A stretch of DNA of 64,000 nucleotides from Escherichia coli (GCF_030013205.1 NZ_CP122648.1); one strand, 5' to 3'. Positions 39,694-47,012 are shown, counted from the first letter of the stretch. Made by a program: numbers and translations. Notes: generated from the letters alone by a model not told the origin.

Positions 39694-40197
39694 TTACTGA
39701 TAGTGTTTTATGTTCAGATAATGCCCGATGACCTTGTCATGCAGCTCCACCGATTTTGAGAACGACAGTGACTTCCGTCCCAGCCTTGCCAGATGTTGTC
39801 TCAGATTCAGGTTATGCCGCTCAATGCGCTGAGTATAACGCTTGCTGATAACGTGCAGCTTTCCCTTCAGGCGTGATTCATACAGCGGCCAGCCATCCGT
39901 CATCCATACCACGACCTCAAAGGCCGACAGCAGGCTCAGAAGACGCTCCAGTGTGGCCAGAGTGCGTTCACCGAAGACGTGCGCCACAACCGTCCTCCGC
40001 ATCCTGTCATACGCGTAAAACAGCCAGCGCTGACGTGATTTAGCACCGACGTAGCCCCACTGTTCGTCCATTTCAGCGCAGACAATCACATCACTGCCCG
40101 GTTGTATGCGCGAGGTTACCGACTGCGGCCTGAGTTTTTTAAGTGGCGGAAAATCGTGTTGAGGCCAACGCCAATAATGCGTGCACTGGCGCGACAT
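39694..40197 (-). CDS. insB: IS1 InsB
   Basis: 167-aa [30 protein letters not shown]... Confidence 0.85.
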
Positions 40198-40391
40198 CCG
40201 ACGCCATTCATGGCCATATCAATGATTTTCTGGTGCGTACCGGGCTGAGAGGCGGCGTAAGTGAACTGTAGTTGCCATGTTTTACGGCAGTGAGAGCAGA
40301 GATAGCGCTGATGTCCGGCGGTGCTTTTGCCGTTACGCACCACCCCGTCAGTAGCTGAACAGGAGGGACAGCTGATAGAAACAGAAGCCAC
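40116..40391 (-). CDS. insA: IS1 InsA
   Basis: 91-aa [46 protein letters not shown]... Confidence 0.85.
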
Positions 40392-40446
40392 TGGAGCACC
40401 TCAAAAACACCATCATACACTAAATCAGTAAGTTGGCAGCATCACC

Positions 40447-40920
40447 CTGGAGCTGGAGAACAATCCACATGGTACAGTAATAACACGAGAAAGTATCAAT
40501 AGTGCTATTTATCTCGTTGATTTTTATTTTCAGCATCTTATATCCAAACTGGAATCACTTCGGGAAATATCTCCTGCAGAAAAACTGGATAAATGGCTCA
40601 GAGAAAATATCATCCGGGTAAAAGGATACGAATATCAAAAAAGCCATATACTACAATATGGTCCATATGCTCTCAGGAATAAATGTGTTCTTGATGAAGC
40701 ACTTGATATACTTGCAGAACAGAAAAAAATCGTAATTGATTATTCAATCGGCCAAAAAATCATTTATATCGGTGACGCGATTACACCTTGTGAATTAGCA
40801 AATGAGGCAAACATCCCGATAATGGAACGTGGAATGTTTATAGTCTGTTGGGACCATAAGCTGAATAAGTACAGAAATGAAGAACAGACTAAAATATGGA
40901 ACATAACTACAAAAAATTAA
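40447..40920 (+). pseudogene. YfjI-like protein, 3' part after IS1
   Basis: In-frame continuation to a stop at 40918-40920. Confidence 0.6.
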
Positions 40921-40964
40921 AATTCCCGTCTTTTATCATTCAGTTACCAACCTGATTATCTGAA

Positions 40965-41005
40965 ACAATGCCAGACATCGGTTACAGACTGGCATTGTTT
41001 TTATC
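40965..41005 (+). terminator. Hairpin (caatgccag...ctggcattg) followed by T-run
   Basis: 9-bp stem inverted repeat then TTTTTATCATT, seen 3' of the yfjI-like gene. Confidence 0.5.
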
Positions 41006-41143
41006 ATTCAATTTATAAACTACAATATTACGTATTATTTTTATATTTATGTCATTGCAAATATCAGACAAACAAGCATTATAACTCAATAAGTATATTT
41101 TTCGTGATTACAGACGGCATCTGCAAATCTGTGAGATGTGATT

Positions 41144-42352
41144 TCATCGCTGGTTTTCCATAATCTGAGACATCACATAATCCGCCCATGCCTGCATCAT
41201 CGGTATACGCTGATCCAGCAGATCAGTCCGGTGATATGCCGCCTCAACCTTATTTTTCAGCGTGTGGGCAAGCGCCCTTTCCGCCAAATCCCGCGAATAT
41301 CCCTGTTCGCTACACCAGTCCCTGAATGTTGAACGAAAACCATGTGCTGTAGCCACTCGTCCGGGTATATCACTGATGGCCTTCTTTTTACGCAGAAAAC
41401 TCGTCAACACCATATCTGAAAGGATCTGCTGCTTTCTGGGAGAAGGAAACACCAGTTCGTCATGCAGACCACGTATATTTTCCAGAACGTGAATGGCCTG
41501 TCGGGATAAAGGAACACGATGCTGTATCCTGGCTTTCATTCTTTCTGCGGGTATCGTCCATATCCGCTTATGAAAATCAATTTCAGCCCAGCGCATTCCC
41601 CTTGCCTCGCCCGAGCGGGTTGCTGTCAGTATCACCATTAATAACAGTGCCCGGGTAACATTATAAGGTTCATCTGTATACACACTGGTCGCCACAAAAA
41701 GCGGTAACTGCCTCCAGGGCATTGCCGGCTGGTGTTCATCACGTCCTCTTGATTGCTGTGGAAGCAAATGATCAACCACATCAACAGGATTCGCCACACA
41801 AAAACCATGCGCCCAGCCCCACTGCATAACAACATGAATGCGCTGTTTAACCCGGCTTGCCGTTTCTGACAAGGTTAACCAGACTGGACGCAGTGTTTCT
41901 GCCACGTCCGCAGCCGTAATCGAATCCAGCGTTTTTGCTCCCAGTTGAGGAAACGCGTAATTCTCAAGCGTCGATAACCACTGCCTTACATGCTTTGGAT
42001 TTTCCCATCCAGGAGACAATTCTGCATGTACACGCCGGGCTGCATCGGCAAATGTTGGGATAACAACTTTTTCAGCTTCAGCCTTTTTAATCTCCAGAGG
42101 ATCATCACCTGCAGCAAGTTGCTCTCGCATTATCCGGGCAGTACGTGCAGCTTCAGCAATACTGACCTCAGGGTAAGTTCCCAATCCAGCATTACGCCTT
42201 TTTTGTGTCACCGGACTTACATAACGAAAAACCCATTTACCCCTCCCCTTTACTGAAGAAGGATGAAGAGTCAGTCCTGTAATTCCCCCATGGGGCAATG
42301 GTTTGTCATCAGGTTTGATATGCCTTGCTTTAGTATCCGTCAATACTGCCAT
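41144..42352 (-). CDS. Tyrosine site-specific integrase (P4/CP4-type)
   Basis: 402-aa ORF with phage-integrase-like N-terminal region and C-terminal catalytic-domain-like H..R...Y spacing; adjacent to the att repeat. Confidence 0.85.
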   Translation of the reverse strand: MAVLTDTKARHIKPDDKPLPHGGITGLTLHPSSVKGRGKWVFRYVSPVTQKRRNAGLGTYPEVSIAEAARTARIMREQLAAGDDPLEIKKAEAEKVVIPTFADAARRVHAELSPGWENPKHVRQWLSTLENYAFPQLGAKTLDSITAADVAETLRPVWLTLSETASRVKQRIHVVMQWGWAHGFCVANPVDVVDHLLPQQSRGRDEHQPAMPWRQLPLFVATSVYTDEPYNVTRALLLMVILTATRSGEARGMRWAEIDFHKRIWTIPAERMKARIQHRVPLSRQAIHVLENIRGLHDELVFPSPRKQQILSDMVLTSFLRKKKAISDIPGRVATAHGFRSTFRDWCSEQGYSRDLAERALAHTLKNKVEAAYHRTDLLDQRIPMMQAWADYVMSQIMENQR

Positions 42353-42630: not shown

Positions 42631-43998
42631 TCATTCATCATCCTTGCGGTTGATAAGAATTTCTGCCTCTTTTACTACCACCTTATTACGCCCGGTCTCT
42701 TTCGCCTCGTATAGTGCGTTATCAGCCAGTCGATAGATCTCATTCGGGTTTAACGCATTTTCCTGAGTCACAACAGCGCCAATACTAATCGTCACTTTTT
42801 GTGGTATGGCGTATTCAGGATTATCACCAGTTAAACGCTCAACATTTTCCCGAATCCTTTCCGCTAAAGCTTTCGCACGTTCAGTATCGATGTCCGTCAG
42901 CAAGACGCCAAACTCTTCGCCGCCGACGCGCGCAAAAAGGTCATCTGGCCGTATGCTTTTCCCAATGATACTCACCACTGTTTTTATCACCTGATCGCCA
43001 ACCGGATGCCCCCAGGTGTCGTTGACTTTTTTGAAGTGGTCGATATCCATAATCATGACGCAATAAGGCGTTTTTTTGGCCGATGCTGATTGAACTGTCA
43101 GTTCATTAAAAAAATAATTTCTGTTAAATATATTGGTTAAGGAATCGCGATGTGCAATGTCCTTTGTTACTCGTAGCGCACTGAATATATGGCACATAAA
43201 TATTACCATAACGGTTAACTTACTGACTACTTCAATAGTGCGACTAATATACCAAATGGACACGCTATACCTGCTCATAAATAAAAGAGAGACATTGTAC
43301 AGTACGGCACAAAAAGCAATCACCGTCACTCCATTCCAGATATCACAGCGTAAACCATTAAAGTATAGATTAACTGAAAGCAAGGTTAACCACATGAAAA
43401 TCATTATGGTAACATATGATGTTTTCCAAACCACCTGATCATTTTCATTGGTTAACTCGGCAATGTGTAAATTGTAGCTCTCATAATGACTAGAAAGTAT
43501 GTGAGCAACTATCGGCCCCCCAACAACAAAAAACAAACTTATGCACAAAGTCATTTTTTTGGAAAATAAATTGCGCTGTTTTGTGTTTTCACTAACTTTA
43601 TTCACCAATGCCAGAAATATTAATATGCACAAACTCATCTGACGAAACAAATAATAGATTGCAATGTCATTTTGAACAACACTGCTTGTCAAACGCCCCT
43701 CAATAATTTGCTGAATGATAATGACGGTTTTAACAAAGTAAATCAAACAACTCAGAAAAGCCAAACTAAGTATACAGTTTGAAAATTGCCTACGGTCATA
43801 AATGAAATACAACTGCATAAAAATAAATGCAACAGTATCGATAAAAAATAAAGCAATCATTACCATCAGATAGGTTGATCGTGGAACAACTTCCTCAACG
43901 CCTGGCTGATTAAAGCAACTATTCACCAAAACCAAAGCAAGCCCAAACAATAAGCTCACTAATACAGTACTACTAATTCTCAAATAGTCTTTTTCCAT
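42631..43998 (-). CDS. dgcT: Diguanylate cyclase DgcT (YcdT), membrane-anchored GGDEF protein
   Basis: Multiple TM segments then GGDEF domain (RVGGEEFGVLL); start placed at MEKDYLRISS. Confidence 0.85.
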   Translation of the reverse strand: MEKDYLRISSTVLVSLLFGLALVLVNSCFNQPGVEEVVPRSTYLMVMIALFFIDTVAFIFMQLYFIYDRRQFSNCILSLAFLSCLIYFVKTVIIIQQIIEGRLTSSVVQNDIAIYYLFRQMSLCILIFLALVNKVSENTKQRNLFSKKMTLCISLFFVVGGPIVAHILSSHYESYNLHIAELTNENDQVVWKTSYVTIMIFMWLTLLSVNLYFNGLRCDIWNGVTVIAFCAVLYNVSLLFMSRYSVSIWYISRTIEVVSKLTVMVIFMCHIFSALRVTKDIAHRDSLTNIFNRNYFFNELTVQSASAKKTPYCVMIMDIDHFKKVNDTWGHPVGDQVIKTVVSIIGKSIRPDDLFARVGGEEFGVLLTDIDTERAKALAERIRENVERLTGDNPEYAIPQKVTISIGAVVTQENALNPNEIYRLADNALYEAKETGRNKVVVKEAEILINRKDDE

Positions 43999-44588
43999 AA
44001 AGCTACACCAATCTGTAGGTTGTAGATCCCTTTCTATTATTAATAGATATAAGAACTGTACTGTTGTCAATATGAAATTCCGCCCACAAACAATACCGAT
44101 GATGATAGTTGCATACCGCAATTATTATTACCTTAGTGCTTTATACATTCTTCGCGACAAGACAGGCTTGCAAATACATATAAATGGTTATAAGGAAATC
44201 CTTATAAAACATTAATTCATAGATATATTAGGAATAACAATTGAATCCGTGAGTACAGTAACGCTGCACTTCATCAGGACTTTCGAAAAATCCGATATCA
44301 TGCATCGGAATTTACTGATTTAATTATTTTAATCCTAATTTATTTTGAAAAAGGCATTGGGATTTATGCCGTATTCCTGAAGTTCCTCATCATTGGAATG
44401 GATTTTCAGGCGAGAAAAGGATTTTATATGGATACTCTACTCATCATTTCTTCTTCTCATCATCAACAATTCACGTCTCTCTTCCGCGTTTAATAACGGA
44501 TTATGATGTGCAAAAAAAATATCTTTCGTTTCAGTTACCTGTAATTAGATACAGAGAGAGATTTTGGCAATACATGGAGTAATACAGG

Positions 44589-47012
44589 ATGTATTCAAGT
44601 AGCAGAAAAAGGTGCCCGAAAACCAAATGGGCTTTGAAAATTCTTACTGCCGCATTTTTAGCAGCGAGTCCCGCGGCGAAGAGTGCTGCTAATAATGCCT
44701 ATGATGCATTGATTATCGAAGCTCGCAAGGGAAATACTCAGCCAGCTTTGTTATGGTTTGCACAAAAATCAGCACTCAGTAATAACCAAATTGCTGACTG
44801 GTTACAGATTGCCTTATGGGCCGGGCAAGATAAACAGGTTATTACCGTTTACAACCGCTACCGTCATCAGCAATTACCAGCGCGTGGTTATGCAGCTGTC
44901 GCCGTCGCTTATCGTAACCTGCAACAATGGCAAAACTCGCTTACACTGTGGCAAAAGGCACTCTCTCTGGAGTCGCAAAATAAGGATTATCAACGGGGAC
45001 AAATTTTAACCCTGGCAGATGCGGGTCACTATGATTCTGCGCTGGTTAAACTTAAGCAGCTTAACTCTGGAGCACCGGACAAAGCTAATTTACTCGCAGA
45101 AGCCTATATCTATAAACTGGCGGGGCGGCATGAGGATGAATTACGGGCGATGACAGGGTCATTACCTGAAAATGCCTTAACGCAACAATATCCCACAGAA
45201 TACGTGCAGGCATTACGGAATAATCAACTTGCTGCCGCGATTGACGATGCCAATTTAACGCCAGATATTCGCGCTGATATTCATGCCGAACTGGTCAGAC
45301 TGTCGTTTATGCCTACGCGCAGTGAAAGTGAACGTTATGCCATTGCCGATCGCGCCCTCGCCCAATACGCTGCATTAGAAATTCTGTGGCATGATAACCC
45401 TGACCGCACTGCCCAGTACCAGCGTATTCAGGTTGATCATCTTGGCGCGTTATTAACTCGCGATCGTTATAAAGACGTTATTTCTCACTATCAGCGTTTA
45501 AAAAAGACGGGGCAAATTATTCCGCCCTGGGCGCAATATTGGGTTGCGTCGGCTTATCTCAAAGAACATCAGCCAAAAAAAGCACAGTCAATAATGACAG
45601 AGCTCTTTTATCACAAGGAGACCATTGCCCCGGATTTATCCGATGAAGAACTTGCGGATCTCTTTTACAGCCACCTGGAGAGTGAAAATTATCCCGGCGC
45701 GCTAACTGTCACCCAACATACCATTAATACTTCGCCGCCTTTCCTTCGGTTAATGGGCACGCCTACGAGCATCCCGAATGATACCTGGTTACAGGGGCAT
45801 TCGTTTCTCTCAACCGTAGCTAAATATAGTAATGATCTTCCTCAGGCTGAAATGACAGCCAGAGAGCTTGCTTATAACGCACCAGGAAATCAGGGACTGC
45901 GCATTGATTACGCGAGTGTGTTACAAGCCCGCGGTTGGCCTCGTGCGGCAGAAAATGAATTAAAAAAAGCAGAAGTGATCGAGCCACGTAATATTAATCT
46001 GGAGGTTGAACAAGCCTGGACAGCATTAACGTTACAAGAATGGCAGCAGGCAGCGGTCTTAACGCACGATGTTGTCGAACGTGAACCGCAAGATCCCGGC
46101 GTTGTACGTTTAAAACGTGCGGTTGATGTACATAATCTTGCAGAGCTTCGTATCGCTGGCTCAACAGGAATTGATGCCGAAGGTCCGGATAGTGGCAAAC
46201 ATGATGTCGACTTAACCACCATCGTTTATTCACCACCGCTGAATGATAACTGGCGCGGTTTTGCTGGATTCGGTTATGCCGATGGACAATTTAGCGAAGG
46301 AAAAGGGATTATTCGCGACTGGCTTGCGGGTGTTGAGTGGCGGTCACGTAATATCTGGCTTGAGGCGGAGTACACCGAACGCTTTTTCAATCATGAGCAT
46401 AAACCCGGCGCGCGCCTGTCTGGCTGGTATGATTTTAATGATAACTGGCGTATTGGTTCGCAACTGGAACGCCTCTCTCACCGCGTTCCATTACGGGCAA
46501 TGAAAAATGGTGTTACAGGCAACAGTGCACAGGCTTATGTTCGCTGGTATCAAAATGAGCGGCGTAAGTACGGTGTCTCTTGGGCTTTCACTGATTTTTC
46601 TGACAGTAATCAGCGTCATGAAGTCTCACTTGAGGGTCAGGAACGCATCTGGTCTTCACCATATTTGATTGTCGATTTCCTCCCCAATCTGTATTACGAA
46701 CAAAATACAGAACACGACACCCCATACTACAACCCTGTAAAAATGTTCGATATTGTTCCGGCATTTGAGGCAAGTCATTTGTTATGGCGAAGCTATGAAA
46801 ATAGCTGGGAGCAAATATTCAGCGCAGGTGTTGGTGCCTCCTGGCAAAAACATTATGGCACGGATGTCGTCACCCAACTCGGCTACGGGCAACGCATTAG
46901 CTGGAATGACGTGATTGATGCTGGCGCAACGCTACGCTGGGAAAAACGACCTTATGACGGTGACAGAGAACACAACTTATACGTTGAATTCGATATGACA
47001 TTCAGATTTTAA
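44589..47012 (+). CDS. pgaA: PGA export outer-membrane porin PgaA (TPR + beta-barrel)
   Basis: 807-aa ORF, first gene of pgaABCD. Confidence 0.9.
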   Translation: MYSSSRKRCPKTKWALKILTAAFLAASPAAKSAANNAYDALIIEARKGNTQPALLWFAQKSALSNNQIADWLQIALWAGQDKQVITVYNRYRHQQLPARGYAAVAVAYRNLQQWQNSLTLWQKALSLESQNKDYQRGQILTLADAGHYDSALVKLKQLNSGAPDKANLLAEAYIYKLAGRHEDELRAMTGSLPENALTQQYPTEYVQALRNNQLAAAIDDANLTPDIRADIHAELVRLSFMPTRSESERYAIADRALAQYAALEILWHDNPDRTAQYQRIQVDHLGALLTRDRYKDVISHYQRLKKTGQIIPPWAQYWVASAYLKEHQPKKAQSIMTELFYHKETIAPDLSDEELADLFYSHLESENYPGALTVTQHTINTSPPFLRLMGTPTSIPNDTWLQGHSFLSTVAKYSNDLPQAEMTARELAYNAPGNQGLRIDYASVLQARGWPRAAENELKKAEVIEPRNINLEVEQAWTALTLQEWQQAAVLTHDVVEREPQDPGVVRLKRAVDVHNLAELRIAGSTGIDAEGPDSGKHDVDLTTIVYSPPLNDNWRGFAGFGYADGQFSEGKGIIRDWLAGVEWRSRNIWLEAEYTERFFNHEHKPGARLSGWYDFNDNWRIGSQLERLSHRVPLRAMKNGVTGNSAQAYVRWYQNERRKYGVSWAFTDFSDSNQRHEVSLEGQERIWSSPYLIVDFLPNLYYEQNTEHDTPYYNPVKMFDIVPAFEASHLLWRSYENSWEQIFSAGVGASWQKHYGTDVVTQLGYGQRISWNDVIDAGATLRWEKRPYDGDREHNLYVEFDMTFRF

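Follow-up and report, generated by a model that had tools for sequence, protein, structure and literature searches.

A minority Escherichia coli allele of the pgaABCD mRNA leader that is very probably equivalent in function to the CsrA- and Rho-controlled leader of K-12

Leaders with several CsrA binding sites have been described for glgC, cstA, nhaR and dgcZ/ydeH as well as for pgaA; they carry GGA or ANGGA motifs, one of them over the Shine-Dalgarno (SD) sequence, and CsrA binds as a dimer that spans two sites, in competition with the ribosome (PMC7652899, PMC4066749). Compared with the other four, the pgaA leader has the most sites, six, and in no other member of the group does CsrA expose a rut site by unfolding a hairpin. 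The primary mapping paper for the K-12 pgaABCD leader is reportedly that of Wang et al. 2005. In K-12, the 5' UTR of pgaABCD comprises 234 nt and the ATG begins at +235 (PMC4052769, PMC3571907), a single promoter has been described (PMC4052769, PMC7652899, PMC3571907), and fragments spanning -124 to +234 or -116 to +234 give regulated expression (PMC4052769, PMC3571907). The two distal of the six CsrA sites cover the SD and the AUG and are required for translational repression (PMC4052769, PMC7652899), while the 5'-proximal pair lies within +61 to +81, the deletion of which removes both (PMC4052769). Nucleotides +61 to +107 form an imperfect hairpin with CsrA sites 1 and 2 on its left arm and the 5' half of rut as its right arm; CsrA opens this hairpin, leading to Rho termination within the leader, and a bubble of C over G extends from +50 to +130 (PMC4052769). 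In vivo CLIP-seq of CsrA in K-12 gives a peak in the pgaA 5' UTR, at -218 to -100 (PMC5694010, supplementary file 3).

The window analysed here, a stretch of 64,000 nt, carries the dgcT–pgaABCD locus of E. coli. It is the locus of the K-12 pgaABCD 5' UTR studied by Figueroa-Bossi et al. (2014, PMC4052769), with the same flanking genes, dgcT and pgaA, and approximately 97% identity in the leader; the gene identities and the homology to K-12 are observed directly in the window.

42631–43998, - strand: dgcT (ycdT), GGDEF diguanylate cyclase, 455 aa (TIGR00254, E = 8e-46; RefSeq)
44589–47012, + strand: pgaA coding sequence, 807 aa (NCBIfam equivalog NF007468, 1443 bits against a cut-off of 1043; RefSeq)

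Downstream of pgaA, which begins with the ATG at 44589, follow pgaB and then pgaC, recognised by the equivalogs NF011177 (PgaB) and TIGR03937 (PgaC) above cut-off. Because dgcT starts at the ATG at 43998 in the RefSeq annotation of every matching genome, the intergenic region comprises 43999–44588 (590 bp). An earlier sequence-only reading had placed the left limit of the pgaA leader at 44122, which does not hold, as this position is only where the longest possible ORF (with a TTG start) ends. A 47-aa ORF at 44072–44215 was considered as a gene and rejected, since the stretch is hypervariable and K-12 has a 1-nt indel that disrupts the reading frame. Of 5426 complete E. coli genomes, 4284 have a match to a 701-base query (44000–44700); an O169:H41 strain is 100% identical to it, and the majority allele, which is of the K-12 type, reaches about 95%.

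Pairwise alignment with K-12 MG1655 delimits the leader and shows six substitutions together with one 3-nt insertion (AAA).

44352–44588, + strand: pgaA 5' untranslated leader, 237 nt, by alignment to the mapped K-12 MG1655 UTR
44383 (+32), + strand: substitution A>U relative to K-12
44408 (+57), + strand: substitution G>A relative to K-12
44433 (+82), + strand: substitution C>U relative to K-12
44439 (+88), + strand: substitution G>A relative to K-12
44507 (+156), + strand: substitution G>U relative to K-12
44512–44519, + strand: A8 run (A5 in K-12), the sole length difference in the leader
44528 (+174), + strand: substitution U>G relative to K-12

Carried over from K-12 by this alignment, the equivalent of the transcription start is 44352 ± 1, and the leader has 237 nt instead of 234 nt because the A-run is 3 nt longer here; among alleles, this run is found as A5, A6, A8 or A9. 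We consider it very probable that the pgaABCD mRNA has 44352–44588 as its 5' leader and that this minority E. coli allele functions as the K-12 leader does. The exact leader allele (at least 99% identity over 261 nt) is present in 192 of the 5426 complete genomes, and K-12-type strains are 96.6% identical to it over 261 nt. All GGAs of the K-12 leader are present in register and no substitution or indel hits a GGA, so that the alignment to the MG1655 leader, which the sequence-only reading had proposed as its check, finds the GGA sites neither absent nor displaced. The arms of the +61 to +107 hairpin, the rut tract and the SD/AUG context are likewise the same in both; the differences are A8 in place of A5, the six substitutions and, upstream of the leader, a divergence of about 13% in 44117–44285. 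The strain keeps the complete textbook CsrA/Rho region of the operon for poly-N-acetylglucosamine (PNAG), and the K-12 annotation can therefore be transferred with confidence. A CsrA-controlled pgaA leader is, in itself, an already known, ordinary and expected feature.

The CsrA sites, every one of which is retained in the window, are distributed over the leader as follows.

44412–44432, + strand: left arm of the hairpin (+61 to +81) with CsrA sites 1 and 2, 21 nt identical to K-12
44419–44421, + strand: GGA of CsrA site 1, AAGGA (PMC4052769 and K-12 identity)
44430–44432, + strand: GGA of CsrA site 2, AUGGA (PMC4052769 and K-12 identity)
44496–44500, + strand: ACGGA, putative CsrA site 3 (primary motif type, PMC4066749, Table 2), identical to K-12
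44553–44561, + strand: AGAGAGAGA, putative non-GGA CsrA site 4 (AGAGA motif), identical to K-12
44576–44579, + strand: Shine-Dalgarno GGAG, CsrA site 5 (the SD-overlapping site in PMC4052769 and PMC7652899)
44587–44591, + strand: GGAUG, CsrA site 6, in which a GGA runs into the pgaA AUG (the AUG-overlapping site in PMC4052769 and PMC7652899)

Site 2 has the context GGAU here as opposed to GGAC in K-12. Table 2 of PMC4066749 gives ACGGA as a primary CsrA motif and, with the pgaA study as its reference, AGAGA as a secondary one; by this secondary source the AGAGA run at 44553–44561 is probably site 4, and ACGGA at 44496–44500 is probably site 3, its GGA at 44498 being the lone GGA between the +61 to +107 hairpin and the SD. 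The SD GGAG lies inside CAUGGAGU (44573–44580), 9 nt before the AUG, and the start-codon GGA inside ACAGGAUG (44584–44591); both stretches are the same as in K-12 and invariant in nine aligned alleles. The sequence-only reading had merged these two sites: its 'aggatg' is indeed present at the start codon ('caggatg', 44585–44591), but the A of its GGA (44587–44589) is the first base of the start codon and this GGA lies outside the SD, whereas the GGA that does overlap the SD is a separate motif, 11 nt further upstream. Its expectation of translational repression of pgaABCD by CsrA is supported, by analogy, through the K-12 literature (PMC4052769, PMC7652899) and the identity of the leader, but not as the sole mode of control, because Rho-dependent termination through the upstream sites would act as well (PMC4052769). 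Three further GGAs in the first 60 nt (44360, 44395 and 44400) are outside the six published sites; the K-12 CLIP-seq peak sequence maps to approximately 44369–44486 in the window and includes 44395 and 44400, and these three conserved GGAs could be additional contacts for CsrA.

Predicted hairpins and a C-rich tract accompany these sites, the hairpins by folding prediction and the composition of the tract by direct count in the window.

44353–44370, + strand: 5'-terminal hairpin GGCAU[UGGGAUUU]AUGCC with GGA 44360 in the loop, predicted at -6.7 kcal/mol
44376–44410, + strand: predicted second leader hairpin with GGAs 44395 and 44400, inside the K-12 CLIP-seq peak
44433–44458, + strand: segment downstream of the left arm, carrying the allele-specific U 44433 and A 44439 (PMC4052769)
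44433–44490, + strand: C-rich, G-poor rut tract (58 nt, of which 20 are C and 3 are G)
44569–44595, + strand: possible weak hairpin AAUACAU[GGAGUAAUACAGG]AUGUAUU, a 7-bp perfect inverted repeat, predicted at -3.5 kcal/mol

The 5'-terminal hairpin is predicted in nine of nine alleles. The second hairpin is predicted at -11.9 kcal/mol here and at -14.8 in K-12, that is, 3 kcal/mol weaker because of the U at 44383. For the anti-terminator hairpin at +61 to +107, the minimum free energy (MFE) is -6.0 kcal/mol here and -6.4 in K-12, and the ensemble energy -7.4 and -7.8, respectively, while the centroid structure loses its upper stem in the window allele (-3.8 versus -5.8 kcal/mol). In the possible hairpin around the start codon, the AUG would belong to the stem, and the two distal GGAs would sit within the loop or at its edge. 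A GGA at a hairpin loop is the usual geometry of a CsrA site. The fold of the whole leader is no stabler than that of shuffled sequence (z = +0.3), and with a z-score near zero overall folding stability is uninformative for this leader. An Rfam covariance-model search of the leader gave only chance-level matches (E = 0.14 and 0.89), far under the gathering scores. The rut tract is nearly invariant, even in an allele of 80% identity; its 20-mer TTTCTTCTTCTCATCATCAA, scanned across genome contigs, gave nine chance matches in unrelated taxa and zero in Escherichia, and is uninformative across species.

By analogy with the K-12 experiments, which are the source for the transcription start, the binding of CsrA and the action of Rho, the window allele would be expected to behave as the K-12 leader does. 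Transcription would proceed from a single NhaR-activated promoter, with a start some 237 nt before the pgaA AUG, and CsrA dimers would bind the GGA-containing RNA sites and act at two steps. At the first, CsrA on the GGAs at 44419 and 44430 in the left arm would open the +61 to +107 hairpin and expose the rut tract at 44433–44490, so that Rho terminates transcription within the leader; at the second, in transcripts that escape, CsrA on the SD GGAG at 44576 and on the AUG-fused GGA at 44587 would block binding of the 30S subunit, with the result that translation is repressed and the message destabilised.

Upstream of the transcription start, the DNA divides into a conserved promoter and a variable distal part.

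44188–44207: inverted repeat TTATAAGGA/TCCTTATAA, upstream of the promoter fragment
44228–44351, + strand: pgaABCD promoter fragment, -124 to -1, after the literature fragments
44287–44313: inverted repeat AAAATCCGAT/ATCGGAATTT, within the promoter fragment

Judged by the spacing to the mapped K-12 start, the -10 element is likely TATTTT at 44341–44346; a good -35 element is missing from the fragment, and a consensus promoter scan returned zero + strand sigma-70 sites for pgaABCD. A weak sigma-70 consensus is expected at the pgaA promoter, since it depends on an activator, NhaR. The core promoter (44297–44351) is identical to K-12, there is one change at -56, and the block 44305–44336 is invariant in nine alleles, the 80%-identical one included; the repeat AAAATCCGAT/ATCGGAATTT may be protein-binding DNA. 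Further upstream, 44117–44285 is hypervariable, with 23 mismatches in 170 bp relative to K-12.

The sequence-only reading was right that several GGA motifs precede pgaA: the + strand of 44122–44600 has 12 (at 44194, 44231, 44277, 44307, 44360, 44395, 44400, 44419, 44430, 44498, 44576 and 44587), a density matched by 2.5% of equal-sized windows of 479 nt in the 64 kb (mean 5.7). Within the leader there are 8 GGAs per 240 nt, a count that 1.3% of windows reach (mean 2.9), and dinucleotide shuffles of the leader have 4.6 on average (P = 0.02); about ten other places in the 64 kb also reach 8 per 240 nt. The enrichment in the leader is real but modest. Four of the 12 (44194, 44231, 44277 and 44307) precede the transcription start and are not part of the pgaA mRNA; two of these four sit in the DNA inverted repeats TTATAAGGA/TCCTTATAA and AAAATCCGAT/ATCGGAATTT.

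The scatter of GGAs over the entire stretch is what would speak for a single leader of about 450 bp (44122–44588), as the sequence-only reading had it, with every GGA a potential CsrA site on the mRNA, and the start position in the window strain is extrapolated from K-12. Such a leader is nevertheless highly improbable: the K-12 UTR has 234 nt behind its single promoter (PMC4052769, PMC7652899, PMC3571907), corresponding to 237 nt here, regulation is kept in the constructs beginning at -116 or -124, and the CLIP-seq peak stops at about +18 with nothing further upstream. The hypervariability of 44117–44285 also speaks against it, as do the absence of the GGA at 44194 from K-12, O157 and ST131 and the loss of those at 44231 and 44277 in the divergent allele of strain 1916D6. 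The flagged region is better divided into a proximal half, which is the leader, and a remainder made up of the NhaR-dependent promoter and the control region of the divergent dgcT. For the leader itself, the moderate enrichment (P about 0.01–0.02), the ten or so equally dense places in the window and a GGA conservation in the divergent allele that does not significantly exceed expectation would all suit GGAs that simply reflect base composition and the usual purine runs resembling an SD, and that regulate nothing in the window allele. We give this account very little credence, as the GGAs match, base for base, sites that were footprinted, mutagenised and recovered by CLIP-seq in a sequence of 97% identity, and none of the sampled alleles departs from the GGAs of the SD, the AUG and site 1.

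Retention of the K-12 mechanism with a different set-point is a separate matter: the changes of this haplotype (U44433/A44439 at the hairpin apex, U44383/A44408 in the second hairpin, the A8 run, U44507, i.e. T in the DNA, and G44528) would shift the amount of CsrA needed for Rho termination and thereby alter basal PNAG production. Changes of 2–3 nt in the hairpin move expression strongly in either direction (PMC4052769), and the loss of the upper stem from the centroid, the weaker second hairpin, the change of site 2 from GGAC to GGAU and the standing of the haplotype as a stable minority (424 exact 82-mers versus 3221 of the K-12 type) are all compatible with such a shift. However, the MFE and ensemble energies of the anti-terminator differ by just 0.3–0.4 kcal/mol, and the hairpin apex is free to vary in other alleles, which suggests low constraint; we therefore hold a shifted set-point to be unlikely, and equivalence to the K-12 leader remains our preferred reading. 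If the shift were nonetheless true, a different CsrA/Rho threshold in the minority haplotype would mean lineage-specific basal production of the biofilm polysaccharide PNAG.

The comparison of alleles covers nine aligned alleles, of which only one, that of strain 1916D6 (80% identical), is truly divergent. None of the nine has lost the GGAs of the SD, the AUG and site 1 or the three 5' GGAs; strain 1916D6 has GAA at site 2, and at site 3 both this strain and strain 07-4299 have GGG. In strain 1916D6, six of the eight leader GGAs thus persist, sites 2 and 3 being lost, where about four would be expected by chance at 20% divergence. With a single divergent allele and six of eight retained against about four expected, the comparative support is weak, and the case for a CsrA-controlled leader consequently rests on the K-12 experiments and on the near-identity of the two leaders. 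Positions 82 and 88 pair in the K-12 MFE structure (C:G; this would become U:A here), and exact 82-mers are found with CG in 3221 genomes (K-12 type), with UA in 424 and with CA in none, UG having zero full-length matches. We rejected C82U/G88A as a compensatory pair, because the two alleles are linked, deeply diverged haplotypes, the apex varies otherwise in three further alleles, and the U:A pair is absent from the MFE structure of the window allele. Upstream of more distant pgaA homologues (about 43% amino-acid identity; Klebsiella, Plesiomonas and Enterobacter-type plasmids), the sequence is unrelated and has 2–5 GGAs, which says nothing either way on the E. coli leader. The residual value of the locus lies in a record of natural variants of a leader with a hairpin that experiments have shown to be finely tuned, and this record could guide allele-swap work on biofilm differences between strains.

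The leader of dgcT (ycdT) shares the intergenic region and is also repressed by CsrA, but it lies on the opposite strand. Mutation of csrA raises the ribosome footprints on dgcT by log2 4.4 (PMC5694010, supplementary file 4), and a single CsrA site has been reported (PMC4066749, PMC6028588). Candidate GGAs for dgcT, outside the pgaA leader, are found at 44029–44027 on the - strand and in an AUGGA at its start codon.

Comparison of the region between dgcT (ycdT) and pgaA with K-12 showed that divergence is concentrated locally at 44117-44285, which separates the two oppositely oriented promoters and has 23 mismatches in ~170 bp, whereas dgcT, the leader of pgaA and pgaA itself differ from K-12 by only ~2%. 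Allele alignment of this segment distinguished at least three classes, the type found in the window, a K-12/O157 type and an ST131 type, and the divergence could stem either from a relaxation of constraint or from recombination long ago in this patch. The hypervariable segment is overlapped by one intergenic reading frame:

44072-44215, plus strand, 47-aa ORF with an ATG start

This ORF is very probably not a gene, because a 1-nt indel breaks the frame in K-12 and because of its overlap with the hypervariable segment.

Two hairpins were predicted within the leader's first 60 nt (44353-44370 and 44376-44410), which together carry three conserved GGA motifs located outside the six published CsrA sites. 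The predicted hairpin at 44353-44370 displays GGGA in an 8-nt loop, while the one predicted at 44376-44410 falls within the CsrA CLIP-seq peak of K-12, and its predicted stability in the window allele is lower by 3 kcal/mol.

A considerably more diverged version of the locus is present in E. coli strain 1916D6:

NZ_CP046003.1, 2650-3257, pga locus with a leader only ~80% identical

The 1916D6 leader retains the promoter core, the C-rich Rho-utilisation (rut) tract and the GGA motifs at the Shine-Dalgarno sequence and at the AUG, and GGA is absent at CsrA sites 2 and 3. The lower stem of its anti-terminator hairpin is changed, with a predicted energy of -3.8 kcal/mol. The pga locus of this strain offers a naturally occurring case on which the attenuation model can be tested.

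On the opposite strand, dgcT is itself a reported CsrA target, and in a csrA mutant its ribosome footprints were up by log2 4.4 (supplement of PMC5694010). Two motifs were found in the sequence of its start region:

43998-43994, minus strand, AUGGA at the dgcT start (ATG 43998-43996, GGA 43996-43994)
44030-44025, minus strand, GGGAUC, ~30 nt upstream of the dgcT start

Judged from the sequence, both motifs (43994-44030) are candidates for the single CsrA site of dgcT.

Regarding distribution, the region between dgcT and pgaA was without a match in 1142 out of 5426 complete E. coli genomes (~21%), and seven of the matches obtained sit on plasmid-labelled records. When each species was represented by one genome, a scan with a 20-mer from the rut tract gave zero Escherichia matches, suggesting that the species representative either lacks the locus or differs in the 20-mer.

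Downstream of dgcT (39694-42352, minus strand), two features related to mobile elements were detected:

41144-42352, minus strand, integrase-family ORF (E = 3e-54, under the curated cut-off)
39694-40197, minus strand, IS1 transposase fragment

At the same position K-12 carries IS3, whereas an EAL-domain gene occupies it in the strain that matches the 701-base query (44000-44700) at 100% identity. The junction downstream of dgcT is variable and rich in mobile elements. The window as a whole contains a sole tRNA gene:

5415-5502, plus strand, tRNA-Ser (anticodon GGA)
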